From positions 2,960-66,959 of IMG/VR virus record IMGVR_UViG_2773857937_000001: 64,000 nucleotides of DNA; one strand, given 5' to 3'. Shown piece by piece: positions 1 to 15,305 of this stretch. The stretch comes from a virus. The position numbers and the translations under genes were made by a program. Position 1 is the first letter of the stretch, and every line of letters begins with the position of its first letter. The notes beneath the pieces were generated by a model. The model searched no databases. It was not told the origin of the DNA and was given only the letters and a program-made list of their open reading frames with translations.

Positions 1-30
1 CGATACAAGCGCGATACAAGCGCGATACGT
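1..30. repeat. 11-bp tandem repeat CGATACAAGCG (about 2.7 copies) at the window edge
   Basis: Read directly: cgatacaagcg cgatacaagcg cgatacg. Confidence 0.5.
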
Positions 31-195
31 CGTTACTGAGATCATGCAATTACGCCAGCGAGCTAATGAGTTGCGCACGTCTGTGGCGAATCTGGAACGT
101 GAAGAGAAAAATACCAAAGCCCGCTTGAGAGCTGCACGGACATCAATTTTATACGCTGAAAACGATCGCAAAAATATAGAGCAAGGGATTACTAA

Positions 196-1047
196 ATGAA
201 GATGGAACTCAAAGCGGAAACTATCAAGCACCCAGCCATTCGCTACCATGGCGGGAAATTCCGCCTTGCATCGTGGATTATCAACCATTTCCCCGCCCAC
301 CGTTGCTATGTAGAGCCTTTTGGCGGTGCCGCATCGGTTTTATTGAGGAAAGCGCCCAGCGACGCGGAAGTTTATAACGACCTCGACGGCGATGTTGTGA
401 ACCTATTTCGCGTACTGCGTAGCCCCGATTCACGTCAGTCACTTATTGATGCGTGTGCTTTAACACCTTATTCACGTAGTGAGTTTCGCTGCGCGTATGA
501 ACAAACAGACGATCCCATTGAACAGGCTCGACGACTAATTGTCCGGGCAACGATGGGATTTGGTAGCGCCGGTGCAACAAAGAGCCGCACAGGTTTCCGG
601 TTGGACACAAAACGAAACAGTGCAACGGCCCAAAAAATATGGGCAAGACAGCCGGATAATCTGGCCGCTGTGGGTAGTCGATTCGCCGGGGTACTCGTTG
701 AAAATCGCGATGCTATTCAGTGTATGCAGGACCATGACACAGCGAGCACATTGCATTTTGTTGATCCTCCGTATGTGCATGATACCCGCGTTAACGTTGC
801 GAAAAACAGCGCATACCGTTTCGAGATGACAAATAACGAACATAGCGTGCTACTTGCCAGCCTAAAGGATCTGAGCGGGATGGTCATTGTGTGCGGGTAT
901 GACAGCGATCTCTATAACGATTCACTCTCGAGCTGGAAGAGAGTTACACGCACTACTGCGGCAAATGGGCATTCAGGTTCAGTGCAACGTACTGAATGTT
1001 TGTGGATTAACCCGGCAGCGCAACAAAGGCTGGACGGCAAACAATGA
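196..1047 (+). CDS. Dam-family (D12 class) N6-adenine DNA methyltransferase
   Basis: The 283-aa ORF carries the FGGAASV AdoMet-binding motif and the DPPY catalytic motif, with the HGGK/W dam-like N-terminus. It is paralogous to the C-terminal half of the 863-aa Dmt at 34904-37495. Confidence 0.75.
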   Translation: MKMELKAETIKHPAIRYHGGKFRLASWIINHFPAHRCYVEPFGGAASVLLRKAPSDAEVYNDLDGDVVNLFRVLRSPDSRQSLIDACALTPYSRSEFRCAYEQTDDPIEQARRLIVRATMGFGSAGATKSRTGFRLDTKRNSATAQKIWARQPDNLAAVGSRFAGVLVENRDAIQCMQDHDTASTLHFVDPPYVHDTRVNVAKNSAYRFEMTNNEHSVLLASLKDLSGMVIVCGYDSDLYNDSLSSWKRVTRTTAANGHSGSVQRTECLWINPAAQQRLDGKQ

Positions 1048-1394
1048 GCAGAAAAGAGCCAAACCCGACACCAGGTAAAGTCATTCGTCCGAATTTGCCA
1101 CCAAGAGTACCGGCCATGGGCCAAACCAGGACCAACGAAATGGAACAATACCCTGTTATTACAGACGCCAACCAGAGTATTCCAGGTATCAGATTACCGT
1201 CGATAGATATCTTGAACGCCTTAGATTATCGGATGGGCTGTTTAAAAAAAGGAATTGCACAGGTTGCTGAAAAACAGCCAGAAGAGGCGGAAAAACTTCA
1301 AGCGTTAGTATCGGAGCTAATTGAAGCTGGACAAGCACGAAAAGCCCTTAAGCGGCAAGCAATTTTCTTAGTGATTGAGGAGGCTCAGTCATGA
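1044..1394 (+). CDS. hypothetical protein (116 aa)
   Basis: Its start overlaps the upstream stop (ATGA), and it is packed tightly in a same-strand operon. Confidence 0.4.
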   Translation: MSRKEPNPTPGKVIRPNLPPRVPAMGQTRTNEMEQYPVITDANQSIPGIRLPSIDILNALDYRMGCLKKGIAQVAEKQPEEAEKLQALVSELIEAGQARKALKRQAIFLVIEEAQS

Positions 1395-1873
1395 AAATTG
1401 ACTATCAGGCGATACGTGAACGTTACTCTCCAAAGCCAGTTCCGAAATGCCACATTTGCGGCGCAGAAATGACTGTACAGCGTATGTCTGCCAGCCGCAT
1501 CACTTATGGGTGTACGGGGGCAACATACGACGATAAAGGTTGCCATTATGCCGCAGGGCGTAGTTTCGTGGACGACCATTATGAGCGGTCCTGCGTCACT
1601 GTCGTCGATGTTAGTGATCCAGAGGTGCTGGTGGTATTAGATGAACTTGAAGCCGCACAAAAGCTATTTGCAGAGGCAACGCTAAAGCTAATTAAGCAAC
1701 ACGCTTTACTGAATAAAGCCGAAATACACATCAAGGAAATTGAAGCACGGACTGTTTCGCTACCAGATGTAGAGAAATGGCGCTCCGTTGATGCTGTACG
1801 TGCTCAGAATGCTTACAAAGTTCTCGTTAGCAAAGTCCTTGCCGACATTGGCATAGCCATCGAGGAGGCATGA
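1391..1873 (+). CDS. hypothetical protein with N-terminal CxxC...C Zn-ribbon (160 aa)
   Basis: ORF with CHICGAEM...YGCTG cysteine pairs and an overlapping ATGA start. Confidence 0.45.
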   Translation: MKIDYQAIRERYSPKPVPKCHICGAEMTVQRMSASRITYGCTGATYDDKGCHYAAGRSFVDDHYERSCVTVVDVSDPEVLVVLDELEAAQKLFAEATLKLIKQHALLNKAEIHIKEIEARTVSLPDVEKWRSVDAVRAQNAYKVLVSKVLADIGIAIEEA

Positions 1874-1874
1874 G

Positions 1875-2186
1875 ATGGCGAGCAAATCACTATGGGCAAT
1901 AGTCGATTTCCTTCGGGTTAACCAAACCATCACGCCGCGCCAGGTTCAGAGCCTGCTGGGATGTGACAGTAAGAAATCACACAACCTGCTGCTTCACCTG
2001 GTGCGCAGAGCAGTAATTATTCGCGCCGGCGATCCGCATCACCCGGTCTATTCGCTGCAACCCGGCGGAGAACTGAATATCAAGCAGATCAAATCGAGCG
2101 TGCGAAAAAACATGGTCACATCAGTATGCCGCACAAGTCCTGCTATGCAGCGTGTATTGGCGTTTTACGGGAGAGGATCAGCATGA
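1875..2186 (+). CDS. hypothetical small protein (103 aa)
   Basis: Operon packing. Confidence 0.35.
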   Translation: MASKSLWAIVDFLRVNQTITPRQVQSLLGCDSKKSHNLLLHLVRRAVIIRAGDPHHPVYSLQPGGELNIKQIKSSVRKNMVTSVCRTSPAMQRVLAFYGRGSA

Positions 2187-2869
2187 CAGTCCATACAATT
2201 AAGCAATGCCGCCCTGACCAGAAAGAAACCGAGTATTTCTGGAAATTGTTTCATGCGGCGCAACGCAATGATGCTCGCTGGCACGGTAGTGAAATCAGCA
2301 TTATCGCCGATGAGCTGTCCCGAACGGATTTAGATCGTAACCAAAAGCTATTTCTTCTCCGCGCCTGGCAAGTGCTTGTAGACGACAAAGGAGGATTCGG
2401 GCGCTTTATGGGTGCTTTCGATACCTATGTCTACAACATGCAGGATCCTGATGATGATTGCGTCGCATGGAAGCCTGAACTTAGCAAACTGCTGTGTGAC
2501 GGGCAATTGTTGGACGTGGTTATCGATGCTTATCACTCTGCTCGCCAGCGCATAGCCGAACTGGAGGCGCGTGTATTCACTTCAGCTGCTCACGATGTAC
2601 TGGCAGAGCGCCAACGGCAAATCAACACGGAAGGCTGGAAGCCGGAACATGACGATGAGCACGTAGAGGGCCAACTTTCTGATGCTGCTGCATGTTATGC
2701 GTTATTCGCTACAGACCAAAGACGACCGGTTCCAGCGCACTGGCCATGGTCGGATGATTGGTGGAAGCAACGCGGTCAACGACGTGATTTAGTCAGGGCT
2801 GGTGCGCTAATCATTGCTGAAATTGAGCGACTCGACCGCGCCGCTGGCATTTGCGTGAATGGAGAGTGA
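2183..2869 (+). CDS. hypothetical protein (228 aa) with HDDEH acidic motif (possible NTP pyrophosphohydrolase-like domain)
   Basis: The start was moved to ATG 2183 (MTVHTIKQC), which is preceded by GAGAGGA. The C-terminus carries EHDDEHVEGQLSDAAACYA. Confidence 0.45.
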   Translation: MTVHTIKQCRPDQKETEYFWKLFHAAQRNDARWHGSEISIIADELSRTDLDRNQKLFLLRAWQVLVDDKGGFGRFMGAFDTYVYNMQDPDDDCVAWKPELSKLLCDGQLLDVVIDAYHSARQRIAELEARVFTSAAHDVLAERQRQINTEGWKPEHDDEHVEGQLSDAAACYALFATDQRRPVPAHWPWSDDWWKQRGQRRDLVRAGALIIAEIERLDRAAGICVNGE

Positions 2870-3290
2870 GATGGCATCCAAAATTTATGAAACCCACCTG
2901 GTGCCGATTAACAAAATGGCAGCAATCGTAACGGGTAAGGGCTTTGAGTATCAACCTAACTGCCTGATCAATTGTGATGAGTATGTCGGCCCGCCAGAAA
3001 CAGTGCCAGTAAAAGAGCTTGCTCTAAATCCTTCGTTTGTTGATCTAACTGGCCGAAAGAAAGGGCGTTTTACTGTAATCGGCCTGATGAAAGAGAAAAA
3101 AGGCAGTTGGTTAGTCAGGTGTGTGTGCGGAACGTATACCACGCGCTCTGCAAAATCTATCAAAGGGGCAGACAGCAACCCTAATTCACACCTGGATGCA
3201 TGCCGCCGCTGCATGCATGAGGCTTACCGTAAGCGGGAGTATATCTACCGTACCACAGGCAAAGATGTTGATCTTTCGGAGGTGTGGTAA
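2859..3290 (+). CDS. hypothetical Cys-rich protein (143 aa)
   Basis: The ORF contains CVCG...CRRC cysteine pairs. Confidence 0.4.
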   Translation: MESEMASKIYETHLVPINKMAAIVTGKGFEYQPNCLINCDEYVGPPETVPVKELALNPSFVDLTGRKKGRFTVIGLMKEKKGSWLVRCVCGTYTTRSAKSIKGADSNPNSHLDACRRCMHEAYRKREYIYRTTGKDVDLSEVW

Positions 3291-3321
3291 TGGCATCTTT
3301 GTTCAAATTGAGGACTAACCC

Positions 3322-3510
3322 ATGACAACTAATTACCTTACAGACGCTTCCATCGACGCTGCACTATTCTCTTCACTTGAGGGCTTCGCTTCTCTGGTGG
3401 TTAGTTCTATTGAGTTTGACCTCGGCAGAGAGCTGACGGAAGAGGAATGTCAACGTGTTTACCGTTATGCGGAAACGGCAATTACTAAAGGGCTAACCCA
3501 TGAGCAATGA
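3322..3510 (+). CDS. hypothetical small acidic protein (62 aa)
   Basis: The ORF lies in the operon. Confidence 0.3.
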   Translation: MTTNYLTDASIDAALFSSLEGFASLVVSSIEFDLGRELTEEECQRVYRYAETAITKGLTHEQ

Positions 3511-4231
3511 CCAGTTAACAAGCGAGAATCTGGACGATGAGACGCTGGCTGAATTGATTGAATTTCGCCGGACAACACTCAAGCACCATACAGATGAGGG
3601 GAACAAAACACAGGCCGTATTACACAATATGGTGCTGGTGGCATTGCTTGAGCTACAAGAACGCCGCAAGCCACAACGACCGGTAGCGTTCCTGAATGAT
3701 GCACATCTTAATCGCGGTTATGTCGAGGGTGGAGTAACGAGCGACGATGATGCGCCGGGGATGATTCCTGTATACCGGGAGCCAGTGGGCGTGGTCTACG
3801 TTAGTTGCCTGCCTGAATCAGAGTTTGATGAGCTACAGGAACGCCGCAAGGCTGATAGCGCTGAGCCGGTTTACCAATGGCGTGAGGCTTTTGAAGAAGA
3901 TTCGCTATGGGATGACTGCACCAAAGCTCAGTACGACGGATTCGCCAAAAAGACGGATTGTGAAGTACGCATTCTCTACACCACACCTCCAGCGCCGACA
4001 GTGCTGAGTACTACCGAAATCATTTCACAACTGGAGCAAGTTCTCAATTGGATACTGAATACGTTACCAGTGCCTACACCGCTGACAATACCAAATGCCC
4101 GACGGTTAACAAATGTGATTAATACCTGCCGCGCCGCCATGCTTCAGGGCGGATTCCGCGATTTATCACAACCAGTAGATCCGCAGGTTGCCGAATATGA
4201 GCAAATCATGCTTCAAGGTGGCGACAAATGA
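3500..4231 (+). CDS. hypothetical protein (243 aa) with internal ELQERRK duplication
   Basis: ELQERRKPQRP and ELQERRKADSA repeats, plus a PPAPTVL motif shared with the next ORF. Confidence 0.45.
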   Translation: MSNDQLTSENLDDETLAELIEFRRTTLKHHTDEGNKTQAVLHNMVLVALLELQERRKPQRPVAFLNDAHLNRGYVEGGVTSDDDAPGMIPVYREPVGVVYVSCLPESEFDELQERRKADSAEPVYQWREAFEEDSLWDDCTKAQYDGFAKKTDCEVRILYTTPPAPTVLSTTEIISQLEQVLNWILNTLPVPTPLTIPNARRLTNVINTCRAAMLQGGFRDLSQPVDPQVAEYEQIMLQGGDK

Positions 4232-4938
4232 TCGCGTTTACCCAAGAAGAGCTACAACGCATAGCAGATACAGATCACGTTCAATCCGGTGACGCTTCGG
4301 CAATAGCTCGCATGCTACTGGCATCGTTAAATGCTACCCCTATTTATCAGGTTCAATATGGACAGAAATGGAGAGATGTAACCAAAGAGCGTTATGAAGA
4401 CCATCGTGATCATGGTTCATCGACCCGTATCGTCTATGCCGAGCCACCAGCGCCGGTGGGCCTAGTTGATGATGCCTATTTAGAATCTTTAATAAAATAC
4501 CAAGAAGCGGAGTTGAAAGCGGCTGAATATGAACTGAAAAAAAATGCCACTCAAGCAATGGATTATAGTGCGGATCGTGAAATGCTAAAACGGCTGGCCG
4601 TTATTATGTCTGGCAATGATTCTCCGGGAGAAATTCGCTCTTTAACTGTCACTGCACAATCGCTGGTGGACCGTTGTAAAGCGCTGGCGCGGGATAAAGA
4701 AGCGTTGCCATCAGACATCTATACGCTTTGGAGACCAGCATCGCCAGATGAGATAAACAAACGCAGCATACGTGAGTCTACAAACATTGATTCCCCATCT
4801 CGCGAAGCCATTATTGCTGGTGGCGTTTTGGTCCAATGCCCTCGATGCGATGGTGATTCTTACCGTTTAAAATTTAATGGTTGGAATCATTATTGGTGCG
4901 ATAAATGTGCAAACGCCATTGCTTCGGAGGGGAAATGA
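4228..4938 (+). CDS. hypothetical protein (236 aa) with C-terminal CPRC...CDKC Zn-ribbon
   Basis: Overlapping ATGA start. It shares the PPAPVGL motif with the 3500-4231 product. Confidence 0.45.
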   Translation: MIAFTQEELQRIADTDHVQSGDASAIARMLLASLNATPIYQVQYGQKWRDVTKERYEDHRDHGSSTRIVYAEPPAPVGLVDDAYLESLIKYQEAELKAAEYELKKNATQAMDYSADREMLKRLAVIMSGNDSPGEIRSLTVTAQSLVDRCKALARDKEALPSDIYTLWRPASPDEINKRSIRESTNIDSPSREAIIAGGVLVQCPRCDGDSYRLKFNGWNHYWCDKCANAIASEGK

Positions 4939-5171
4939 ATATTCACGTTTTTTTATCTATTCTGGTTGTTTATTTCCTGGGATTTATTGGCATGTATTTC
5001 TATTCGCTAAAGCAGGATGAGGAATGTGACCTCGAAAGGAATCCAAAAGAAGCGCTATTATTCGCTTTATTTTGGTTTGTGCTCATTCCAATTCTGCTTA
5101 TCTGGATTGTAGTAGAAACAATTATTCACCTAGTACGCGCTGCATACAACCGGTATAAAAATAATGGCTGA
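4905..5171 (+). CDS. small membrane protein (88 aa, two hydrophobic helices)
   Basis: Hydrophobic segments LSILVVYFLGFIGMYF and ALFWFVLIPILLIWIVV. Confidence 0.4.
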   Translation: MCKRHCFGGEMNIHVFLSILVVYFLGFIGMYFYSLKQDEECDLERNPKEALLFALFWFVLIPILLIWIVVETIIHLVRAAYNRYKNNG

Positions 5172-5472
5172 TCTCCAACTGGCGGTGAAAGGCGAATACT
5201 TTGACGCGATGAAACGCGGTGTAAAACCCAATGAGTACCGATTATACAACGATTATTGGATTAAACGGCTGGTAGGCCGCTCATATGACCGCCTGATTAT
5301 TACCAGGGGCTATCCACGCAAAGACGACGCGGATCGGCGCATTGTTGTTCCGTATGACGGCTATGACATAGAGACAATAACCCATCCTCACTTTGGTTCC
5401 GAGCCGGTGAAGGTGTTTGCAATAAAGGTGAATATCAATGCCAAAATCGTTAAACATAGAGCATCTGCGTGA
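5164..5472 (+). CDS. ASCH/DUF3850-like small protein (102 aa)
   Basis: An EYFDAMKRGVKPNEYR N-terminal pattern like the ASCH/PUA-like fold. This is recalled, not searched. Confidence 0.35.
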   Translation: MADLQLAVKGEYFDAMKRGVKPNEYRLYNDYWIKRLVGRSYDRLIITRGYPRKDDADRRIVVPYDGYDIETITHPHFGSEPVKVFAIKVNINAKIVKHRASA

Positions 5473-6127
5473 AGTTGCAGCAAAGACAAAGAATGATGGT
5501 CAATTGGCCTACAACAAATACCCAAGAGGAATTAGAGTGGAAATTATCTTATCGGCTATGTCCCCGGAACTCGCTACTGCTTTTGATACAGCGTTTGCCG
5601 ACCTCGATAACTGGCGGGTAGTTCGCGGCCCATTCGAAAGCATTCAAACGTTTGATTGTATGGTTAGCGCGGCGAATTCATTTGGCCTGATGGACGGAGG
5701 CGTAGACGCAGCGATTACTGCTTTCTATGGTATCCATCTACAAAATCGCGTACAGCAGCACATCATTGCTGAATATCTTGGTGAGCAGCCGGTCGGTACA
5801 GCATTTGTAATTGGTACAAATCATGAGAAGCACCCTTGGCTGGTTCATGCCCCCACGATGAGGACGCCAGCGCTCATATCTGGAACTGATGCAGTATACC
5901 GTGCTACTTGGGCTGCGCTGGTGGCCATCCACAACCACAACAAGGAGGGTGATCGCATCACGACGGTTGTATTCCCTGCAATGGGAGCGGGTTGCGGTGA
6001 AGTGCCAGCAAAGAATGTTGCTGAACAAATGGCGTTAGCATGGCGAAATTTTCACGCGGTACCAACACTGATCAACTGGCCATATGCGTTTCAGAGATCG
6101 CGATTAGTTGATCAGTGTATAGGGTAA
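5438..6127 (+). CDS. macro-domain (ADP-ribose binding/processing) protein
   Basis: The SAANSFGLMDGGVDAAI motif and a later PAMGAGCGEVP glycine-rich loop are typical of macro domains. Confidence 0.6.
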   Translation: MPKSLNIEHLREVAAKTKNDGQLAYNKYPRGIRVEIILSAMSPELATAFDTAFADLDNWRVVRGPFESIQTFDCMVSAANSFGLMDGGVDAAITAFYGIHLQNRVQQHIIAEYLGEQPVGTAFVIGTNHEKHPWLVHAPTMRTPALISGTDAVYRATWAALVAIHNHNKEGDRITTVVFPAMGAGCGEVPAKNVAEQMALAWRNFHAVPTLINWPYAFQRSRLVDQCIG

Positions 6128-6197
6128 TAGGAATTGACAGCATGACTCAGCGCAATAATACTGTACATATGACCAGTGTTATTGCGCGAGGTATTCC

Positions 6198-6527
6198 GTG
6201 GGTTTTCCATCACCGGCAGCTGATTATGTCGAACGCCGCCTTACAGTAGACGATATCTGCCAGAACGACGCTAACTGCGTAACAATACAAACATCGACCG
6301 GCTACGCCGTTGTTAACCGCTCATTAAGGCCAAAACAGAGCAATCTGGTGCTGATCTCATTCTGTGGTCGAACTCACTTTGCGCGCGTAATGGGGCGGTC
6401 GCTGATAACTGACGACGGCGAAGCCATTGAAGGGGACGCACTTGATGATGTCAGTGTTACAGGCGTTGTGACTTTTCTCATCAACCGCGCTGTTAACACC
6501 GCCTCAGATGAATTACCAGTGGTCTGA
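6198..6527 (+). CDS. hypothetical protein (109 aa)
   Basis: ORF only. Confidence 0.3.
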   Translation: MGFPSPAADYVERRLTVDDICQNDANCVTIQTSTGYAVVNRSLRPKQSNLVLISFCGRTHFARVMGRSLITDDGEAIEGDALDDVSVTGVVTFLINRAVNTASDELPVV

Positions 6528-6556
6528 TCGCTCGGTTCTTAAAGGCACATTCCCTT

Positions 6557-7162
6557 TTATCCGTTCTGCACTTCGCGGATACGTTTAATCACGACTTCCC
6601 GAAGTTCGCTTAACGCGTTTGCTTCATTACCCAGCTTAGAGATAGACATCTCAAGTGCATTGCTATACCAGGCCAGTTGAGGCAAGTTCATGTGATTATG
6701 GTTGAGGGTAGGGGCAACCTCTACAATCTCGTTTTGTTCCTGTGCCAGCGAGTACGTATTCATTTCTTCCATTGTGGCGAACTCACCTACAATGACCTGC
6801 TGGTGGTCCGGACGTTGTGGCTGTCGGATGAGGACAAACGGTGGTTCTGTCGAGTACAGGAATATAGGTTTGGCGCGTGTTTTTACCCATTTAGCTTGTT
6901 TCTTTTCTGCCAGTTCACAGGCTTCATCATACGTGTCAGCTACACCCAGGAAAGAAGAGCGATCCCATGCCCCGCCATTGAGACAGCGAACCATAATTTT
7001 TCCGTCCGGTTGAGTAAGCCCATACGGATGGTCCCACCAGGCGTCGAGCTGGCTCTTAGAACGTTTGTCGTTTGGTGTAACGTCAAAATTGGCAGGTAGT
7101 TTAGGGTCCAGTGGAATACAGTTAGGCATAAATATCCTTTTTCCCGAAAGTGTTAGGTTCAC
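6557..7162 (-). CDS. hypothetical protein (201 aa)
   Basis: A long minus-strand ORF that converges on the upstream operon. It has an ATG with an AAAGGA-like RBS. Confidence 0.5.
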   Translation of the reverse strand: MNLTLSGKRIFMPNCIPLDPKLPANFDVTPNDKRSKSQLDAWWDHPYGLTQPDGKIMVRCLNGGAWDRSSFLGVADTYDEACELAEKKQAKWVKTRAKPIFLYSTEPPFVLIRQPQRPDHQQVIVGEFATMEEMNTYSLAQEQNEIVEVAPTLNHNHMNLPQLAWYSNALEMSISKLGNEANALSELREVVIKRIREVQNG

Positions 7163-7218
7163 AGAATACCCTGAAAAGGCTTTTTGATAACGTGAGAGTC
7201 AGAACAGAATAGAATCAT

Positions 7219-7256
7219 TTTGTTTGTATTGACAAACAAAAAACAAACTATTATAT
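7219..7256 (+). promoter_or_regulatory. sigma70-type promoter (TTGACA-16-TTATAT) overlapped by inverted repeat TTTGTTTGT/ACAAACAAA (operator-like)
   Basis: Read directly in the intergenic region between divergent genes. Confidence 0.45.
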
Positions 7257-7317
7257 TGCCCACATGGTGCTAAAACAGTGCCATCGCCCCGGCGCACCGG
7301 GCAACAGGAATAAAATA

Positions 7318-7689
7318 ATGAACAAATTACAAACAATCTCCGCCGATGACCTCTACTACAACACCGAATGGAATCCCGTTCAAAACATTGATGTAAAAAT
7401 TTGGGATGATCGTAACCAGGATTGCTATGGCACTGCCGATTTAACCTCAAAAGACGGCAAGACCTCCATTACGTTCCCATGGAAAATTAACTACACCTCC
7501 ATGGTATGCGGCGATGACGATATGCTGGAAATCTCCATTGTCGGCACACCTGAACTCAATTTGCCAGCCCAGGCTGAAACCTCATTACCTCTGTTAGAGG
7601 TTATGGAAGAACTGGACATGATTATTGGTATCAGCGCGCAAATCCGTAACCACTGGATCCACAACACGCCTCCAATTTTAGAGCAGTAG
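7318..7689 (+). CDS. hypothetical protein (123 aa)
   Basis: Start chosen at ATG 7318 (MNKLQTI) after AGGAATAAAATA. Confidence 0.45.
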   Translation: MNKLQTISADDLYYNTEWNPVQNIDVKIWDDRNQDCYGTADLTSKDGKTSITFPWKINYTSMVCGDDDMLEISIVGTPELNLPAQAETSLPLLEVMEELDMIIGISAQIRNHWIHNTPPILEQ

Positions 7690-7698
7690 GGATAGTTT

Positions 7699-7941
7699 AT
7701 GTCCGAAAAACCACGCGATCCGCGCAGTAAAAACCCTCTTAAAGAAGCCGTCGCAGCGACGGCTCATATACAGATGCGCGTAACCCCCGATCGTAAAAAA
7801 CGTTACGTCGCCCAGGCAAGGGCCGAGGGCATGAAGCTAACCGACTGGATCCAGAGCCATATGGATAACGTTTGTAATGAAGCTGGCCAGCCTGACACCA
7901 CTATGTACAAAGAGTACGGAGAGAGTCATGGAAAAGAATGA
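7699..7941 (+). CDS. small ribbon-helix-helix-like DNA-binding protein (80 aa)
   Basis: IQMRVTPDRKKRYVAQARAEGMKLTDWI resembles RHH (CopG/Arc) strand-helix-helix. Confidence 0.35.
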   Translation: MSEKPRDPRSKNPLKEAVAATAHIQMRVTPDRKKRYVAQARAEGMKLTDWIQSHMDNVCNEAGQPDTTMYKEYGESHGKE

Positions 7942-8617
7942 TCAGATAAATCAGGATGAAGTAAAAAGCGTAGCCCGTGCCGCACTGGATTACATTGATG
8001 CGCTTCCGAAGGAAGTTGTGGCGGCGCTGCCAGCAATGCCTGGTTTTGATCGAGATTGGGCTGAAAATGTGCTGGCTGATGTAACAAGCCCAACGGCCTT
8101 AATCCCGAACCATATGTTTTTCGACAATGACGATGAGCCGTATACAGTGCTACGTACTATCAAAGGCCTTCTGGAAATGCAGGGCTTTATCGTTAAGGAA
8201 GATCCTGAGCGCATGTTTGCGCCTGGTGCGCATGGCAATCAGGAGGCGCAGGCCGCTGCTACCTGTACCGCGTATTTTGCTGACGTACCGCGTGATGTGC
8301 TGGAGAAGGTGATCCCCACTGATAACCGTTTTAACATCGATATGTCAGATGTGCTGAAAGGTATTGGCATTGACTTAAAAGATGAGAAATTATGGCAGCT
8401 TTCCGACTCCATGACCAATACCGTCAATGAGCTGGCTAATTATCTTATAAGTGATGGCTGGACGCCTCACGAAATTACCTTTGATGGTCGCTATCGTTTC
8501 TCCAAGCAGGTCGGCGGTGAAATGCAATACAGGGATATAATTTCCCGCGTTGAAGGTAATGGCCCCACATTGAGAGCTAATGTGTGGGATGAAGCTGTCC
8601 AGGTAGAAGGGAAATAG
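7928..8617 (+). CDS. hypothetical acidic protein (229 aa)
   Basis: Start moved to ATG 7928 (MEKNDQ), which has a GGAGAG RBS and an ATG..TGA overlap with the upstream gene. Confidence 0.45.
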   Translation: MEKNDQINQDEVKSVARAALDYIDALPKEVVAALPAMPGFDRDWAENVLADVTSPTALIPNHMFFDNDDEPYTVLRTIKGLLEMQGFIVKEDPERMFAPGAHGNQEAQAAATCTAYFADVPRDVLEKVIPTDNRFNIDMSDVLKGIGIDLKDEKLWQLSDSMTNTVNELANYLISDGWTPHEITFDGRYRFSKQVGGEMQYRDIISRVEGNGPTLRANVWDEAVQVEGK

Positions 8618-8619
8618 CG

Positions 8620-8931
8620 ATGAGCAAAACAGTATTTTTGGTGGAGGTAGAACCTTTCAAGGTCTGCGGCCCTGAAACGGAAGTAGGTAAGTTTGTCTTT
8701 GAGCGCGATCTGGTGGAGGAAACGCCAACGCACTACGTTGTAACGAGTCTGGCGCGTTCTGAGGAGGTTGTGAAGTTTTCCCGCCGTGAGTGCGTAGCAT
8801 TTGATACTCGTGATGAGGCGTTGCTACACCTTGAGCGCATTGTGCTTAATAAAATGCAGGGGCTGGAAGACGAGCTGGGGAAATGGCAGCACTTCATTGA
8901 CTCTGTTGATGATGAACTCCGGAAATCGTAA
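8620..8931 (+). CDS. hypothetical protein (103 aa)
   Basis: ORF 3 nt after the upstream stop. Confidence 0.45.
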   Translation: MSKTVFLVEVEPFKVCGPETEVGKFVFERDLVEETPTHYVVTSLARSEEVVKFSRRECVAFDTRDEALLHLERIVLNKMQGLEDELGKWQHFIDSVDDELRKS

Positions 8932-8941
8932 GTAGGACAAA

Positions 8942-9985
8942 ATGAAAGCCGTCATCACTCCCTTTGTCCAGAAAGAGTTAGGTCTTGCCACATTCAAGAT
9001 AGATGATGATGTAGCGCGGCTGATAAGTTCTGGCCGTAAATTCATTATGGAACCTGTCGCACGTGAGCTGGTGGAGCATACAGAAGACGGGTTAATCCAT
9101 ACCGAGCAGTCAATGGCCACTAACGAAGCACTGCGACCTTTTTTCACTAGCCCTGACGTTTTCCGCCGCTTAGGTGGTCTTGATTCGCTGGTGGCATATC
9201 TGCGTACGCATGTTTCAAGTTGCCAGACTGCCGCTCCTGGTTGGTGTGACAACAAGCTAACCTATACAGAGCGTAATGATAACGCGGTAGTCTTATGCTG
9301 GCATCACGACAACCACTATATGATGCGTGGCTTTACCGAACTCGCTCCAACTCTATACCGTAACCGTGTGGACTGGATACTTGAAACCGCGCGAACCGAG
9401 ATGGGACTCCCGTCTGGCCGTGACCTTAGCATTCAGGAGCTTTGCTGGTGGGCGTTCATGCGCAACATGATTGATCAGGTGCCGGAGGAGATTTGCCGCA
9501 TCGCTATCAATAAACTGAAGGAAAAGCAGGATACATCGGGAACGACCAAGGAAGCTGATATCAAGCCATATGATGACCGTGCTATTGCATACGTCAGACA
9601 GATGGAAGAAAAGGCGGATCCTATGCGCGCGAGGGTATGTCCGGTAACAGTTGAGCCAGACCCCGGCATGGCATATTTCAAAAGACCGAAGCTACAGCCA
9701 TTAAAACTGCCTAATTATCTCTCATTTGTTGCATCCAGGCCGTGCTGTGGGTGCGGAGCATCCGGGGAGAATGCCAACATATCTCCCTATCTGGTACTCA
9801 ATAAGCGGTTATGCGCACACGACACATACGCAATTCCACTATGCCTAGCATGCCAAAAGGAAATAAGGCGTGATCGGAGCGGATGGGAGAATAAGCACGG
9901 AAAATTGGCTGTACACCAGCGTGTATTTTTTGATTACGCCCAGGGAATTGGCGCTATCACAAGTCATGAGTCAGCTAATAACTAA
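8942..9985 (+). CDS. hypothetical protein (347 aa) with C-terminal Cys cluster CCGCG...CAH...CLAC
   Basis: ORF with a probable zinc-binding C-terminus. It sits at the position of the pap/pmg genes upstream of lpa in P1. Confidence 0.5.
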
Positions 9986-9986
9986 A

Positions 9987-10003
9987 ATTGCTCTAATATA
10001 TTG
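9987..10003 (+). promoter_or_regulatory. C1 repressor operator (ATTGCTCTAATATATTG), Op53-like, upstream of lpa; weaker second half-site follows
   Basis: Matches the P1 C1 operator consensus ATTGCTCTAATAAATTT at 14 of 17 positions. Confidence 0.7.
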
Positions 10004-10104
10004 CTATTTCTTAAATAGAGGCTATCATGTGCTCATTGGTTAACCGGGTTCGGTTAACCAATAGGTGACAGGACGTTGCTTAAACTGGCAGGGACGCCAA
10101 ACAC

Positions 10105-10527
10105 ATGAGCCGAAATCGCAACACGCGGATTACATCCTATGAGATTGCGGAATACATGATCCGCACCAGAGCATCGCTATCAGCCAAGGAACTGGCTATT
10201 ATTCTGGCGAAAGAATATCCCCAACTTGAAATTGATACTCGCGACGTATACTTGCGTCTGAAATCAATCTCCGTTTCGCGACACTCTTCCGTGATTGTTG
10301 ACGAAAGCTGCCGCCCTCGAAAGTTTCGCATTTACTCGCTGGATCCTGAATTCTTCCGCCGCAGCCGCGCCGCGCGACGTTTTGGCGAAGATATCAGCGA
10401 TGAACTTAAAATGACCTACGACGAGAAAGAACGCCGGGAACATCGACCGTGGGTCATGGCCCGCCAGTTGTTTAACAACATCACTCGTCAGCATCGCCAA
10501 CAGCAGGACTGTAATTTTTCTGTTTAA
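10105..10527 (+). CDS. lpa: late promoter activator Lpa-like protein
   Basis: Its position is C1 operator - ORF - pacA - pacB, exactly as in P1, and its size fits Lpa. The P1 Lpa sequence itself was not recalled. Confidence 0.5.
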   Translation: MSRNRNTRITSYEIAEYMIRTRASLSAKELAIILAKEYPQLEIDTRDVYLRLKSISVSRHSSVIVDESCRPRKFRIYSLDPEFFRRSRAARRFGEDISDELKMTYDEKERREHRPWVMARQLFNNITRQHRQQQDCNFSV

Positions 10528-10550
10528 TACCCACGACATTCTCCGTGTGC

Positions 10551-10580
10551 GGCCCAGGGCTTCGGTTCCGGGCCTTTTTG
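10551..10580 (+). terminator. rho-independent terminator (GGCCC-loop-GGGCC + TTTTT)
   Basis: Read directly: ggcccagggcttcggttccgggcc ttttt downstream of lpa. Confidence 0.7.
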
Positions 10581-10637
10581 ACGTGTGACTTGCGTTACCC
10601 TCGCCAAAAAGAGTTTTCACACGCAAGGAATGCATGA

Positions 10638-11828
10638 GTGACCTGGGACGAGCACAAAGCGAATTTTGCCAGGCTGGCACGCGATGGCGGCTATACCATC
10701 GCTCAATACGCAGCAGAATTTAATCTTAACCCCAATACAGCCCGCCGCTACCTGCGCGCCTTTAAAGATACTGGCACCGGTGCGGATGGCGTTACACCAA
10801 ATAAACCCGTAAGAACTCCCGCAGCAAGAGCCAGAAATGATCAAAGCAGTGATCATAAAAATAGTGATCACTTAGTCAGTAAAGTAATTAAAAAACAGAA
10901 AGATAAGCGCGTGATCACTGGCGCGCTGGCGCAAGCCTCTCGCCAGAAAAAGCAGTTAAATGATCGCGAAGGTGATCATGATGTGATCACTCGCGCCAAG
11001 CGATCACTTAAATCGCGCCTTGAACGTGATCGTATTGATGATGACGGTGAAACGTTTGAGTTTAGCCCCACCGATTACCAGATAGACAACAACGAGGCCC
11101 GACGGGAAGCGCGCGCCATGCTCCGCCGTTCTGGTGCTGACGCTCTCGAAACAGCCTTACTTGAAAAGACTCTTTCGCACCTCCTTATGCTGGAAAACGC
11201 TCGTGACGTTTGTATTGAGCTTGTGCAGGAGTTACGCACAGAGAACAAAGATAAAGACGAAACGCCGGTTGAGTACCGCATTGCCAGCATGCTTAACAGT
11301 TGCACCGCGCAGATAAGCAGCCTGGTGAACACAATATTCAGTATCCGCAACAACTACCGGAAAGAGAACCGCGAAGCCGAGAAGCACGCGCAGGCTATGG
11401 GCCATACCGGCATTGTGCAGTTGGCATATCAGCGCCGCCGCGAGCTGGGGTGGACCGCACAAGAAACGGCGGAATTCATCGAAGCCCAGGGCGGGAAAGT
11501 GCCCCCTTTGCTTATGGAGACGATCCGTGCCGAACTGCGAATGCCAAAACAGGAGAAACCAGACTCTACCGATGAAACTGTAGACGGTGCTCCATCACTA
11601 GAAGATCTCGACAGAGAGGCGCGAAAACGAGCCGCCAGCCGTCGCGCAGATTCCTCCCTATGGATTGAACAGCGTAGAGAGGAAATAGCCGAAATAGTCG
11701 ATACAGGCGGTTATGGAGACGTTGATACTGAAGGCGCATCGAATGCCCCATGGCTTGAGCAAGACCTCGATGAAGATGAGGAGGAAGACGAGGAAGTAAC
11801 ACGCAAGCTATACGGAGAGGATGACTGA
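10638..11828 (+). CDS. pacA: terminase small subunit PacA
   Basis: Recalled similarity to P1 PacA ([40 protein letters not shown]). It contains the pac site. Confidence 0.8.
10838..11032. other. pac packaging site: cluster of about 9 GATC-containing hexamers (TGATCA/G) in two groups
   Basis: Read directly: tgatca, gtgatcat, gtgatcac, gtgatcact, tgatcgc, gtgatcatgatgtgatcac, gcgatcac, gtgatcg. The P1 pac has 7 Dam-methylatable hexamers inside pacA. Confidence 0.7.
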
Positions 11829-13315
11829 TGGCCCCCCGTAGTTGCGTAACCGATCCACGATGGAGAAAACTTGTCTCCCTATACCGTTATGACTGGATAA
11901 GCGCCGCAGACGTGCTGTTTGGCAAAACACCGACCTGGCAGCAGGATGAAATCATCGAATCGGTCCAGGAGCCGGGAAGTAAAACGAGCGTTTCATCCGG
12001 TCACGGCACAGGTAAATCGGACAACGCCAGCATGTTGATCATGCTATTTCTCATCATGTTTCCAGGTGCCCGCGCAATACTGGTGGCGAACAAAATTCAG
12101 CAGGTCCGGGACGGTATCTTTAAGTACATAAAAATAAACTGGGCTACGGCCACCAGCCGCTTCCCCTGGTTGGCCAACTATTTTGTACTGACCGAGACAT
12201 CATTCTATGAAATAACAGGCAAGGGCGTCTGGACAGTCATCCCTAAAGGCTTCCGCCTGGGTAACGAAGAGGCACTGGCAGGGGAACACGCCGATCACCT
12301 GCTCTATATCATTGATGAAGCCTCCGGGGTAAGTGATAAGGCATTTGGTATCATCACCGGCGCGCTGACCGGGGTAGATAACCGAATTCTACTGTTATCG
12401 CAGCCTACCAGACCGAGCGGCTATTTCTATGACTCGCACCATAAGCTGGCTAAACGGCCAGGCAATCCAAACGGTATCTACACGGCGATAACTCTTAACA
12501 GTGAAGAGTCACCCCTTGTTACCGCCGACTTTATCAAAATGAAGCTGGCAGAGTACGGCGGCCGCGATAACCCGATGTACCTCATAAAAGTACGTGGGCT
12601 ATTCCCTAAAACCCAGGATGGCTTCCTGCTTGGTCGTGATGAAGTAGAGCGCGCTACCCGCCGTAAGGTAAAGATAGCCAAAGGATGGGGCTGGATCGCA
12701 TGCGTGGACGTCGCTGGTGGCACTGGACGAGACAAATCAGTTATCAACATAATGATGGTATCTGGCGATCGAAATAAGCGCCGCATTATCGCCTATCGCA
12801 TCATCGAGTACACAGACGTTACAGAAACCCAGCTGGCAGCCAAGATAAACGCGGAATGTAGCCCTGACCGTTATCCAAACATCTCTATCGTCATTGATGG
12901 TGACGGCCTGGGTAAATCCACCGCAGACCTGCTTTACGACAACTACGGCATAACAGCCCAGCGCATCCGCTGGGGTAAGAAAATGCACAGCCGGGAGGAC
13001 CGCAGCCTGTACTTCGATCAGCGTGCGTTCGCTAACATACAGGCCGCAGAAGCGGTGAAGTCTGGTCGTATGCGTCTTGATAAAGGGGACGCAACGATTG
13101 ATGAGGCGTCAAAGATCCCCGTAGGTATCAATGCCGCCGGTCAATGGAAAGTTATGACCAAAGAAGATATGAAGAAAAAACTCAACCTGCGTTCACCTGA
13201 CCATTGGGATACATACTGCTTTGCTACGCTAGCAAACTATGTACCTCAAAATGAGGTATTAAGCGTCGAAGATGAGGCGCAGGTTGATGAGGCTCTGGCG
13301 TGGCTTAACGAATAA
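11828..13315 (+). CDS. pacB: terminase large subunit PacB
   Basis: Deviant P-loop SSGHGTGKS, Walker [10 protein letters not shown], the P1 pacA-pacB arrangement, and 495 aa. Confidence 0.8.
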
Positions 13316-15056: not shown

Positions 15057-15073
15057 TAATTTATTAGAACAAT
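15057..15073 (-). promoter_or_regulatory. C1 operator (AATTTTATTAGAACAAT, reverse orientation)
   Basis: 15 of 17 match to the consensus. Confidence 0.6.
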
Positions 15074-15140
15074 TGTCAATCAAAGGCAACCGCTTAAGAG
15101 CATGTTTCTGATTCAAAGCACAGAATTAGCCCTTTTATTT

Positions 15141-15157
15141 ATTGCTCTAATAATTTT
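15141..15157 (+). promoter_or_regulatory. C1 operator (ATTGCTCTAATAATTTT)
   Basis: 16 of 17 match to the consensus. Confidence 0.7.
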
Positions 15158-15234: not shown

Positions 15235-15305
15235 TTCTAGCGCTTCCGAACCTGACTAATGATACTGTAAATCCATACAGGGTAAAGGGTTTGGCGGTCA
15301 AAAAG

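Follow-up and report, generated by a model that had tools for sequence, protein, structure and literature searches.

The interval between pmgS and pdcB of P1-like phage-plasmids has been published as 'highly variable region 8', lying between two genes described as 'extremely conserved' (PMC9603915), and in a CRISPR interference screen every tested P1 gene from pap to pdcB was non-essential, with upfM and pdcA, which were not part of the test, being marked as non-essential from earlier work (PMC10695390). Here, the corresponding interval was analysed in IMG/VR record IMGVR_UViG_2773857937_000001 (positions 2,960 to 66,959, i.e., 64,000 nucleotides (nt), henceforth called the window, to which all coordinates refer unless otherwise stated). 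In a first-pass annotation, positions 1-9985 of the window had been put forward as a candidate anti-defence or host-takeover island of 19 small, overlapping open reading frames (ORFs) upstream of lpa. The hotspot itself is already known and the cargo set is new: taken as a whole, the data are probably best explained by a swap-prone, non-essential accessory hotspot, the cargo of which would be arranged in four regulatory units and would serve early host modulation with some counter-defence. The gain is mainly a refined annotation and a corrected first reading. In Salmonella, Escherichia coli (E. coli), and Citrobacter, P1-like phage-plasmids are common, and resistance and virulence genes can be among their cargo; a well-anchored exchange site with a C1 operator on each side tells annotators where new cargo sits.

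Compared with the P1 interval, the locus occupies the same slot, with pmgS and an Op88-type operator on the left and pdcB, Olpa, and lpa on the right, and retains lxr, a humD-type gene, and pdcB. Its content varies between relatives, and non-essentiality is known from the P1 counterpart. However, 17 of the 20 genes have no P1 homologue, the interval is about twice as long as that of P1, and the humD-like gene precedes lxr and points towards it, whereas the P1 pair is divergent around a shared LexA box. A second likeness is to the exo-xis or ea region of lambda, P22, and Stx phages, as it also contains Ead/Ea22-like proteins, small overlapping early genes, and proteins made from portable modules with acidic C-terminal domains (PMC10834534); the Ea22 proteins of lambda and Stx phages show the same mosaic, portable-domain behaviour (PMC10834534). 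At the nucleotide level, the locus directly matches ES18 gp37, the EaD/EaA region, and further Salmonella phage genes. The difference lies in the setting, which is a P1-type phage-plasmid behind a C1 operator here and pL under CI/N control there.

Anti-defence islands of mobile elements are said to have been described by Pinilla-Redondo in 2020. With acr-aca loci, the right-hand part of the locus has in common a strong promoter under an inverted repeat, a small protein of DNA-binding type with small acidic proteins beside it, and neighbouring cargo that differs between close relatives; in contrast to them, no known Acr, Aca, or other anti-defence family was matched here in the general library scans, the ribbon-helix-helix (RHH) assignment of the small protein is sub-threshold, and in most relatives the regulator comes first and is followed by pdcB. 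The published DarG-like and NADAR antitoxin mimics of phages, which reverse ADP-ribosylation (PMC11481870, PMC11825919, PMC13309987), resemble one cargo protein in that a stand-alone macro domain with glycine-rich ADP-ribose-binding motifs is found in a phage accessory region. They differ from it in that sequence searches with the protein described here reach TTHA0132 and macroH2A types and not DarG, while in Foldseek MacroD-like and DarG-like domains are not told apart.

Borders, variability, and exchange of the interval

The backbone (window 10-30 kb) has ~72% nt identity to P1 across pacA, pacB, and c1, and 78-80% nt identity to the Salmonella plasmids CP053320, CP140745, pCFSAN058588, and CP146848 and to Cronobacter phage JK004. 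Based on these identities, the source element is classed as a divergent P1-like phage-plasmid, probably from Salmonella or Citrobacter. In database searches, window 1-10000 was covered to at most 30% by any single phage or plasmid record; the matches were short patches of 74-97% identity from various Salmonella phages and Salmonella or Citrobacter plasmids.

On the right, the interval is anchored by pdcB, followed by a C1 operator (Olpa) and by lpa-pacA-pacB (tblastn against P1: PdcB 67%, Lpa 71%, and PacA 70% identical; Lxr, PdcB, Lpa, and PacA span 67-71%). No C1 operator was found inside 1-9985, the nearest one being the Olpa homologue listed in Table 1. The left anchor lies outside the window and was read from L004, a contig of assembly GCA_012540605.2 that was used both for the refinement of gene starts and for the left border (99.8% identical over 8-7939 and 97.3% over 8800-10700). 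In L004, the end of a pmgS homologue (69% to P1) lies 1.3 kb ahead of position 1. A C1 operator with one mismatch, ATTGCTCTAATAAATAT, is located 1.2 kb upstream of window position 1, where P1 has Op88/OpmgT; it recurs at this place in four lineages (L004 and three others). As judged from these anchors, the left border of the island is at this conserved Op88 homologue, ~1.2-1.5 kb beyond the left end of the window. The placement in the P1 slot upstream of lpa stands, and the island extends beyond the window; window 1-9985 probably comprises most of the pmgS-to-pdcB hotspot.

Between the conserved flanks, the interval ranges from 1.4 to >11 kb (P1, 5.1 kb with 13 genes; pCFSAN058588, 1.4 kb with 2 genes; CP146848, 7.6 kb; JK004, 11.1 kb with 27 genes; here, ~10 kb), which is the variable-content hotspot that comparative genomics had been proposed to look for. 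In a set of 80 IMG/VR loci with PdcB as the anchor, ~5-kb insertions between pmgT and pmgU, some of which carry an ASCH homologue, bring many E. coli P1-type loci to more than 10 kb, and an alignment-based PdcB scan of a one-genome-per-species contig collection yielded 11 loci. The hotspot varies even among P1 isolates: in OP279344, pmgT is directly followed by phd (30748-31830), and pmgU, pmgV, upfM-O, hot, lxr, and humD are missing.

Exchange is visible at close range, as window 7940-8799 (860 bp) corresponds to an unrelated 482 bp at L004 17745-18226. The stop codon of the RHH-like gene marks the start of the swap, which ends within the gene after next, and the encoded 103-amino-acid (aa) protein and a 106-aa protein of L004 are therefore alike in their C-terminal parts only. 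The ratio of nonsynonymous to synonymous substitution rates (Ka/Ks) was 0.05-0.38 for every island gene with a usable homologue, and the island ORFs are therefore maintained by purifying selection. Ks to relatives was 0.15-0.85 for most of the compared island genes versus ~1.0-1.5 or saturation for lpa and pacA, with the exception of the methyltransferase gene in comparison with locus L002 (CP146848; Ka/Ks 0.05, Ks 2.1). Some of the genes with low Ks are common to Citrobacter freundii plasmid CP145667, the Lpa and PacA of which are 40% and 28% identical to those of the window. Low Ks despite divergent Lpa and PacA indicates that these genes were recently transferred horizontally between phage-plasmid lineages, which agrees with the general picture (PMC10879196). 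Plasmid CP145667 contains several island genes at 77-92% aa identity as well as ParM/StbA and RelE/ParE genes, and is apparently a separate phage-plasmid lineage that trades cargo with P1-like elements.

The array within 1-9985 consists of 20 genes (ORF list with starts refined from the L004 gene calls), 19 of which are on the + strand. The co-oriented array of the first-pass annotation is hence real, but its count rises by one, and the first gene is present as its 3' end only. As had been noted, start/stop overlaps chain most of the genes, with six 4-nt ATGA overlaps and further overlaps of 8, 11, 14, and 35 nt; gaps of 1, 1, 2, 9, and 10 nt occur at other junctions, and a Shine-Dalgarno-like purine run precedes almost every start.

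Three of the 20 genes are conserved P1 genes, none of which is morphogenetic. The earlier statement that no P1 product of the slot is recognisable does not hold, as Lxr (69%), PdcB (67%), and a HumD-like protein (29%) were identified by tblastn. With the same approach, no homologue of hot, phd, doc, pdcA, pap, pmgT/U/V, or upfM/N/O was found within the 64-kb window.

Table 1 Features of the interval and of its right flank, with predicted products (E, E-value; pI, isoelectric point)
Feature	Position	Strand	Remarks
3' end of a gene, 65 of 131 codons	2-199	+	gene starts outside the window; full gene L004 9609-10004
D12-class (Dam-family) N6-adenine DNA methyltransferase, orphan, 283 aa	196-1047	+	Pfam PF02086 E 3.6e-16
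116-aa protein	1044-1394	+	77% aa identity to a protein of Salmonella plasmid CP146848; Ka/Ks 0.38
Ead/Ea22-like protein, 160 aa	1391-1873	+	Pfam PF13935 E 1e-17 (65 bits, cut-off 27); N-terminal Cys-rich module, then coiled coil
Ren-like exclusion family protein, basic, 103 aa	1875-2186	+	phrog_142 'Ren-like exclusion protein' E 9.4e-26; pI 11.0
Mosaic protein, 228 aa	2183-2869	+	C-terminal ~100-aa module ends many phage proteins of differing lengths
Cys-rich protein, 139 aa	2871-3290	+	phrog_18493 E 1.6e-29; weak HNH-endonuclease phrog_374 E 2.4e-7
Acidic single-module protein, 62 aa	3322-3510	+	Ka/Ks 0.15
Acidic mosaic protein, 243 aa	3500-4231	+	two ELQERRK junction motifs, PPAPT module
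Mosaic protein, 236 aa	4228-4938	+	PPAPV module, C-terminal CxxC...CxxC Zn ribbon; Pfam Zn-ribbon matches weak, generic
Hydrophobic protein, 78 aa	4935-5171	+	two membrane-spanning segments predicted by eye
ASCH-like (PUA-like) protein, 102 aa	5164-5472	+	phrog_625 E 1.2e-42; Ka/Ks 0.11
Macro-domain protein, 229 aa, predicted ADP-ribose binder or hydrolase	5438-6127	+	Pfam Macro PF01661 E 6.8e-17
Sigma70-like promoter TTGACA-17-AATACT	6134-6178	+	-10 hexamer overlapped by LexA-like box TACTGTACATATGACCAGTG at 6159-6178
Short UmuD'/HumD-like protein, 109 aa	6198-6527	+	GTG start; phrog_3469 'UmuD-like' E 4.1e-47, full length
Lxr homologue, 190 aa	6557-7129	-	69% identity over 190/190 aa of P1 Lxr; phrog_6164 E 1.9e-111
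Perfect palindrome, candidate operator	7218-7241	+	arms 7218-7227 and 7232-7241 (10 bp each, 4-nt spacer); overlaps -35 hexamer; divergent lxr intergenic region
Sigma70-like promoter TTGACA-17-TATATT	7229-7257	+	11/12 consensus positions; faces away from lxr
Acidic orphan protein, 123 aa, pI 4.1	7318-7689	+	first gene behind palindromic promoter
RHH-like protein, 80 aa, candidate regulator	7699-7941	+	second gene behind palindromic promoter; Ka/Ks 0.12-0.17
Acidic mosaic protein, 229 aa, pI 4.5	7928-8617	+	cassette replaced in nearest relative L004
Acidic protein, 103 aa	8620-8931	+	phrog_22900 E 1.3e-24; homologues in L004, L005, L031
PdcB homologue, DUF968, HNH-like, 12 Cys	8942-9985	+	67% over 345 aa to P1 PdcB; right border of hotspot
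C1 operator, homologue of P1 Olpa/Op94	9987-10003	+	ATTGCTCTAATATATTG, 2 mismatches to consensus; just outside island, ahead of lpa
lpa	10105-10527		Lpa 71% identical to P1 Lpa

Cargo proteins and their relatives

According to their alignments, six proteins (1391-1873, 2183-2869, 3322-3510, 3500-4231, 4228-4938, and 7928-8617) are built from short, shuffled modules of ~40-50 aa. This module shuffling extends the Ea22 mosaicism of lambdoid phages to another class of mobile element. In the Ead/Ea22-like protein, the C-terminal module (aa 117-156) recurs in unrelated mosaic proteins. Ten PHROG families match the protein at 2183-2869, all of them via aa 131-247 only (numbering of the longer ORF 2126-2869; E down to 2.7e-45); its gene has a 91% nt match to Salmonella phage 118970_sal3, and no sequence relative was found in the PDB. 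The single module of the 62-aa protein forms the N-terminus of several mosaic proteins (P0024, P0032, P0033, P0065, and others), while aa 11-50 of the mosaic protein at 7928-8617 are found again, at 75-92% identity, in N-terminal, internal, or C-terminal position in proteins of 127-395 aa from ~80 clusters. Modules of 1391-1873, 3322-3510, 3500-4231, and 7928-8617 co-occur in other proteins, and some module-bearing proteins add DUF551, Ead_Ea22, dATP/dGTP-pyrophosphohydrolase (dATP-dGTP_PPHyd), or DUF3850 domains.

The two proteins with PPAP[VT] motifs, which had been called paralogues, have a module of ~50 aa in common (34% identity, pairwise E 3e-5), and their resemblance is confined to this module instead of extending over the full length. 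Both copies of the ELQERRK motif are contained in one protein, that at 3500-4231, and are encoded by a 22-nt direct repeat (95% identical); apart from this repeat and chance pairs, nothing was found in a repeat search of the island. Residues 1-132 of the same protein are 92% identical to a Citrobacter plasmid protein. Its similarity to a 'Lar family restriction alleviation protein' (38% identity) concerns the N-terminal part of the latter, a Citrobacter homologue that ends in a Lar domain. Lar-type restriction alleviation was considered for the island and rejected, as the Lar domain is located in the Citrobacter homologue and not in the window proteins. In Salmonella phage 29485, the EaD/EaA region matches the gene at 4228-4938 (88% nt identity). 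The Zn-ribbon proteins of the first-pass annotation correspond to Cys-pair, Zn-ribbon-like motifs read from the sequence in 1391-1873, 2871-3290, and 4228-4938, for which the Pfam Zn-ribbon matches were generic and weak.

A stand-alone Dam-like methyltransferase is present at 196-1047, as had been stated. It exceeds the Pfam cut-off of the D12 class (60 versus 22 bits), contains a DPPY motif (FVDPPYVHD), and matches phrog_56 (E 1.4e-69) and the PADLOC model MTase_II, and PADLOC identified no restriction partner among the neighbouring genes. The scores lie below the cut-offs for GATC-specific Dam (TIGR00571, 64 versus 115 bits; PRK10904, 36 versus 441 bits). The island contains 42 GATC sites versus ~39 expected, i.e., no avoidance signal. 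Elsewhere in the element (~34.9-37.5 kb of the window), there is a separate homologue of P1 Dmt. It was recovered on the minus strand at ~34910-37486 in three tblastn pieces (P1 aa 4-78, 419-631, and 631-1012), with ~340 P1 residues unmatched and a gap of ~590 bp between pieces two and three; a rearranged or interrupted Dmt gene, or one with a different build in this lineage, may lie behind this pattern.

The macro domain at 5438-6127 was likewise retained from the earlier annotation, with Pfam, AlphaFold2 (AF2), and Foldseek in agreement. The protein scores 62 bits against a PF01661 cut-off of 22 and contains the invariant N80, a GGV motif, and a GAGCG motif. Its AF2 model has a predicted local distance difference test (pLDDT) score of 78 and a confident core, and Foldseek matched TTHA0132, MacroD2, macroH2A, YmdB, and DarG at E 1e-7 to 1e-5, with macrodomain matches at probability 1.00. 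DarG (5m3i) ranks 49th (E 2.5e-5, template modelling score 0.71 on target) and all macro classes match about equally; in sequence and profile searches of the PDB, TTHA0132 was the sole match and DarG was not reached. The family comprises about 2000 homologous clusters, mostly from Salmonella and E. coli prophages, and is often mislabelled as 'phage tail protein'. The N-terminal extension of the ORF (window 5438-5540; 33 residues, with a 35-nt overlap with the ASCH-like gene) is absent from most homologues and has a pLDDT of 42-50; the true start may be further downstream than 5438. Structure prediction, which had been suggested as a systematic check, thus recovered a macro fold for this protein and none for the 229-aa mosaic protein at 7928-8617 (pLDDT 55.7, no significant fold, best Foldseek PDB match E 0.057).

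For the ASCH-like protein, no Pfam match was obtained, and homologues at 91-92% identity are annotated as 'ASCH domain-containing' or 'RNA-binding protein'. The hydrophobic protein at 4935-5171 is kept in Citrobacter plasmids (65-77% aa identity, Ka/Ks 0.26). The truncated first gene encodes a coiled-coil protein (phrog_1621, E 7.6e-15), the 116-aa protein matched no family in Pfam, PHROGs, or NCBIfam, and the 139-aa Cys-rich protein matched no specific Pfam family but at most generic, weak Zn-ribbon models. A scan of 1-12000 against Rfam by E-value found no RNA family. With a pattern derived from four P1 late promoters, no Lpa-type late promoter was found in 1-13000, but the pattern also missed the expected LPpac site.

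Of the P1-type genes, the one at 6198-6527 (29% identity to P1 HumD; Ka/Ks 0.12) encodes a protein whose N-terminus, in an alignment with E. coli UmuD, falls exactly on the GFPSPAADY motif of processed UmuD' and is followed by the C-terminal beta-domain. Relative to P1 HumD, it has an 11-residue deletion of the Ser loop, i.e., the catalytic-serine loop is gone. Because of this deletion and a score below the NCBIfam HumD equivalog cut-off (43.5 versus 120 bits, E 2.7e-11), it was classed as HumD-like and not as HumD. The LexA-like box at its promoter reads CTGT-N8-CCAG, and relatives hold boxes closer to the consensus in the same slot (L002, 9896; L006, 5601). The sole minus-strand gene is lxr, homologues of which are annotated as 'DNA-binding protein'; its upstream region (7130-7263) contains no CTGT-N8-ACAG and nothing within five mismatches of the 20-nt LexA consensus. 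PdcB matches Pfam DUF968 (E 2.6e-44) and phrog_96 (E 1e-109).

Proposed regulatory units and competing readings

From co-orientation, gene overlaps, and the lack of internal operators and convincing terminators, we infer that positions 2-6127 belong to a single C1-controlled operon. This first unit would be a long operon with translational coupling, transcribed from an upstream, C1-repressed promoter outside the window; it would be off in the plasmid prophage and turned on by infection or induction. Its products would be the Dam-family methyltransferase, Ead/Ea22 and other mosaic proteins, and the Ren-like, small membrane, ASCH-like, and macro-domain proteins. The second unit would be a LexA-box-controlled gene for a pre-processed UmuD' mimic that could feed host UmuC during the SOS response, and the third would be lxr on the opposite strand. 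In the fourth, a strong promoter overlapped by the palindrome would drive the genes for the acidic orphan, the RHH-like protein, the acidic mosaic protein, the acidic 103-aa protein, and PdcB, with the RHH-like protein as the most likely autoregulator. The putative collective role is early host modulation with some counter-defence, plus tuning of the SOS response and lysogeny, on cargo that would be drawn from a pool common to lambdoid Salmonella and E. coli phages and other phage-plasmids. The methyltransferase, the Ren-like protein, and the macro domain, and perhaps also the acidic orphans, may plausibly contribute to counter-defence, and this contribution could consist of methylation against restriction, anti-exclusion, and reversal of ADP-ribosylation. 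Another part of the island, i.e., the HumD-like gene with its LexA box, Lxr, and Ead/Ea22, points to SOS and lysogeny modulation rather than to counter-defence.

The fourth unit corresponds to what had been described as an RHH protein behind an operator-overlapped sigma70 promoter. Promoter and palindrome are present, but the RHH gene is second and not first, and its assignment is sub-threshold (Pfam RHH_10, E 7e-4, 20 bits versus a cut-off of 27; NikA-like also sub-threshold). The palindrome is kept in at least eight other loci (L002, L008, L013, L015, L016, L017, L033, and L036), some of which are without lxr. In the leader behind the promoter (7263-7317), there is a GC-rich hairpin (CCCCGG-CGCA-CCGGG) with no T-run after it, and the leaders in L016, L017, and L008 contain a conserved counterpart (CCCCGG-CGGCT-CCGGG). 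Only 13 clusters make up the RHH-like family, almost all of them from Salmonella or E. coli contigs of 90-100 kb, and the gene is normally found between lxr and pdcB, accompanied by zero to three variable small genes. The gene at 8620-8931 is conserved directly upstream of pdcB in the Salmonella lineage, and in a minimal lineage an RHH-containing ORF, the homologue of the 103-aa protein, and pdcB follow directly behind an Op88-type operator. The three acidic proteins around the RHH-like gene have a pI of 4.1-4.9. The 123-aa orphan had no match in Pfam, PHROGs, NCBIfam, or PADLOC, or in tblastn of 72,556 plasmids; among 1.8 billion representatives, it matched itself and, weakly, repeat-rich beta-sandwich proteins, the latter matches probably being compositional.

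Several observations weigh against the organisation and role proposed above. Eight of the 20 proteins are without informative annotation, and no known anti-defence family was matched in Pfam, PHROGs, NCBIfam, or PADLOC, which are general libraries, no anti-defence-specific scan having been made (PADLOC on all 19 complete proteins returned methyltransferase models and nothing else). In the region, promoter-like and terminator-like sequences are no more numerous than in shuffled controls. The LexA-like box has CCAG instead of ACAG in one half and five mismatches to the 20-mer consensus. The minimal lineage lacks the palindrome yet has the RHH-like gene, and the palindrome may be a site for Lxr or for a host factor, or may not be bound at all. 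Lastly, Ea22 has been reported as pro-lysogenic (PMC10834534) and not as anti-defence.

The same cargo could be read as a dedicated anti-defence island in which most genes inhibit bacterial immunity and the module from the palindromic promoter to the RHH-like gene works like an acr-aca locus. In favour of this are the orphan methyltransferase, the Ren-like protein, and the macro domain, the three acidic proteins by an RHH-like gene and a near-consensus promoter under a conserved palindrome, and the swap of the cassette beside this gene between near-identical elements; relatives of the mosaic proteins bear Lar or dATP/dGTP-pyrophosphohydrolase domains, and orphan DarG-like and NADAR antitoxin mimics of phages have been published as counter-defences (PMC11481870, PMC11825919, PMC13309987). 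However, the window proteins themselves are without Lar and pyrophosphohydrolase domains, no validated anti-defence protein was matched in the general library scans, the model of the 229-aa mosaic protein is poor and without a fold match, and the 123-aa protein is an orphan. Genes of SOS and lysogeny type (HumD-like, Lxr, Ead/Ea22) are also inside, and in most relatives the RHH-like gene comes first with pdcB directly after it, unlike in acr-aca loci. On the whole, this explanation is rather unlikely. Unlikely, too, is a further proposal in which the right-hand unit would be an Aca-like autoregulated counter-defence locus of P1-type phage-plasmids and the Ead/Ea22-type mosaics would be immunity inhibitors made of an adaptor plus a swappable effector; the conserved ~40-50-aa modules would then act as in-frame recombination joints that reshuffle Lar, dATP/dGTP pyrophosphohydrolase, DUF551, and orphan acidic domains.

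A lysogeny, SOS, or maintenance module that serves the plasmid-prophage state, with the RHH-like and the downstream gene as a replacement toxin-antitoxin pair, would fit the P1 slot, which holds phd-doc, humD, lxr, and hot, and another stabiliser might be expected given that the 64-kb window has no phd or doc homologue. An RHH antitoxin gene upstream of its toxin gene is a common layout, and this, the LexA-like box at the HumD-like gene, and the pro-lysogenic report on Ea22 were counted on the same side. The gene after the RHH-like gene, however, differs between 99.8%-identical elements and is often just pdcB, a pattern incompatible with a cognate toxin; the proteins encoded downstream are acidic and no toxin family was matched near the RHH-like gene (Pfam, NCBIfam, PADLOC), and the C1-type operator ahead of the bulk of the island would keep that bulk off in the lysogen. 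A toxin-antitoxin pair replacing phd-doc was hence rejected, as the downstream partner is swapped or absent in close relatives, and the maintenance module as a whole is very unlikely; the RHH-like protein as a candidate autoregulator of the pdcB operon is the more economical reading. Recombination debris, i.e., largely functionless gene fragments tolerated at an insertion-permissive site, would agree with the extreme mosaicism and module shuffling, with the non-essential P1 counterpart (PMC10695390), and with relatives that are nearly without the interval (1.4 kb in pCFSAN058588). It is extremely unlikely in view of the intact state of all ORFs, with ribosome-binding sites and translational coupling, the Ka/Ks of 0.05-0.38 in every comparable gene, the modules at 75-92% aa identity across many contexts, and the abundance of macro, ASCH-like, and Dam families in prophages.

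The accessory hotspot with early, partly counter-defensive cargo is thus preferred. It offers as candidates the orphan methyltransferase, the stand-alone macro domain by an ASCH-like protein, and three acidic orphans behind a palindromic promoter. If it is true that one of these orphans inhibits defence, the conserved flanks and the RHH-like gene would provide anchors for guilt-by-association mining.

Further features of the element

A second LexA-like box, TACTGTAAATCCATACAGGG, is located at 15263-15282, near the C1 operators at 15057-15157. It is the sole exact CTGT-N8-ACAG in the window and is also found in plasmid CP146848 (17885). A DarB homologue is encoded at L004 1-2143, ~8 kb upstream of the island, and is 71% identical to P1 DarB aa 1541-2255. 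As L004 is near-identical to the window, the classical P1 Dar anti-restriction system is also part of the element.

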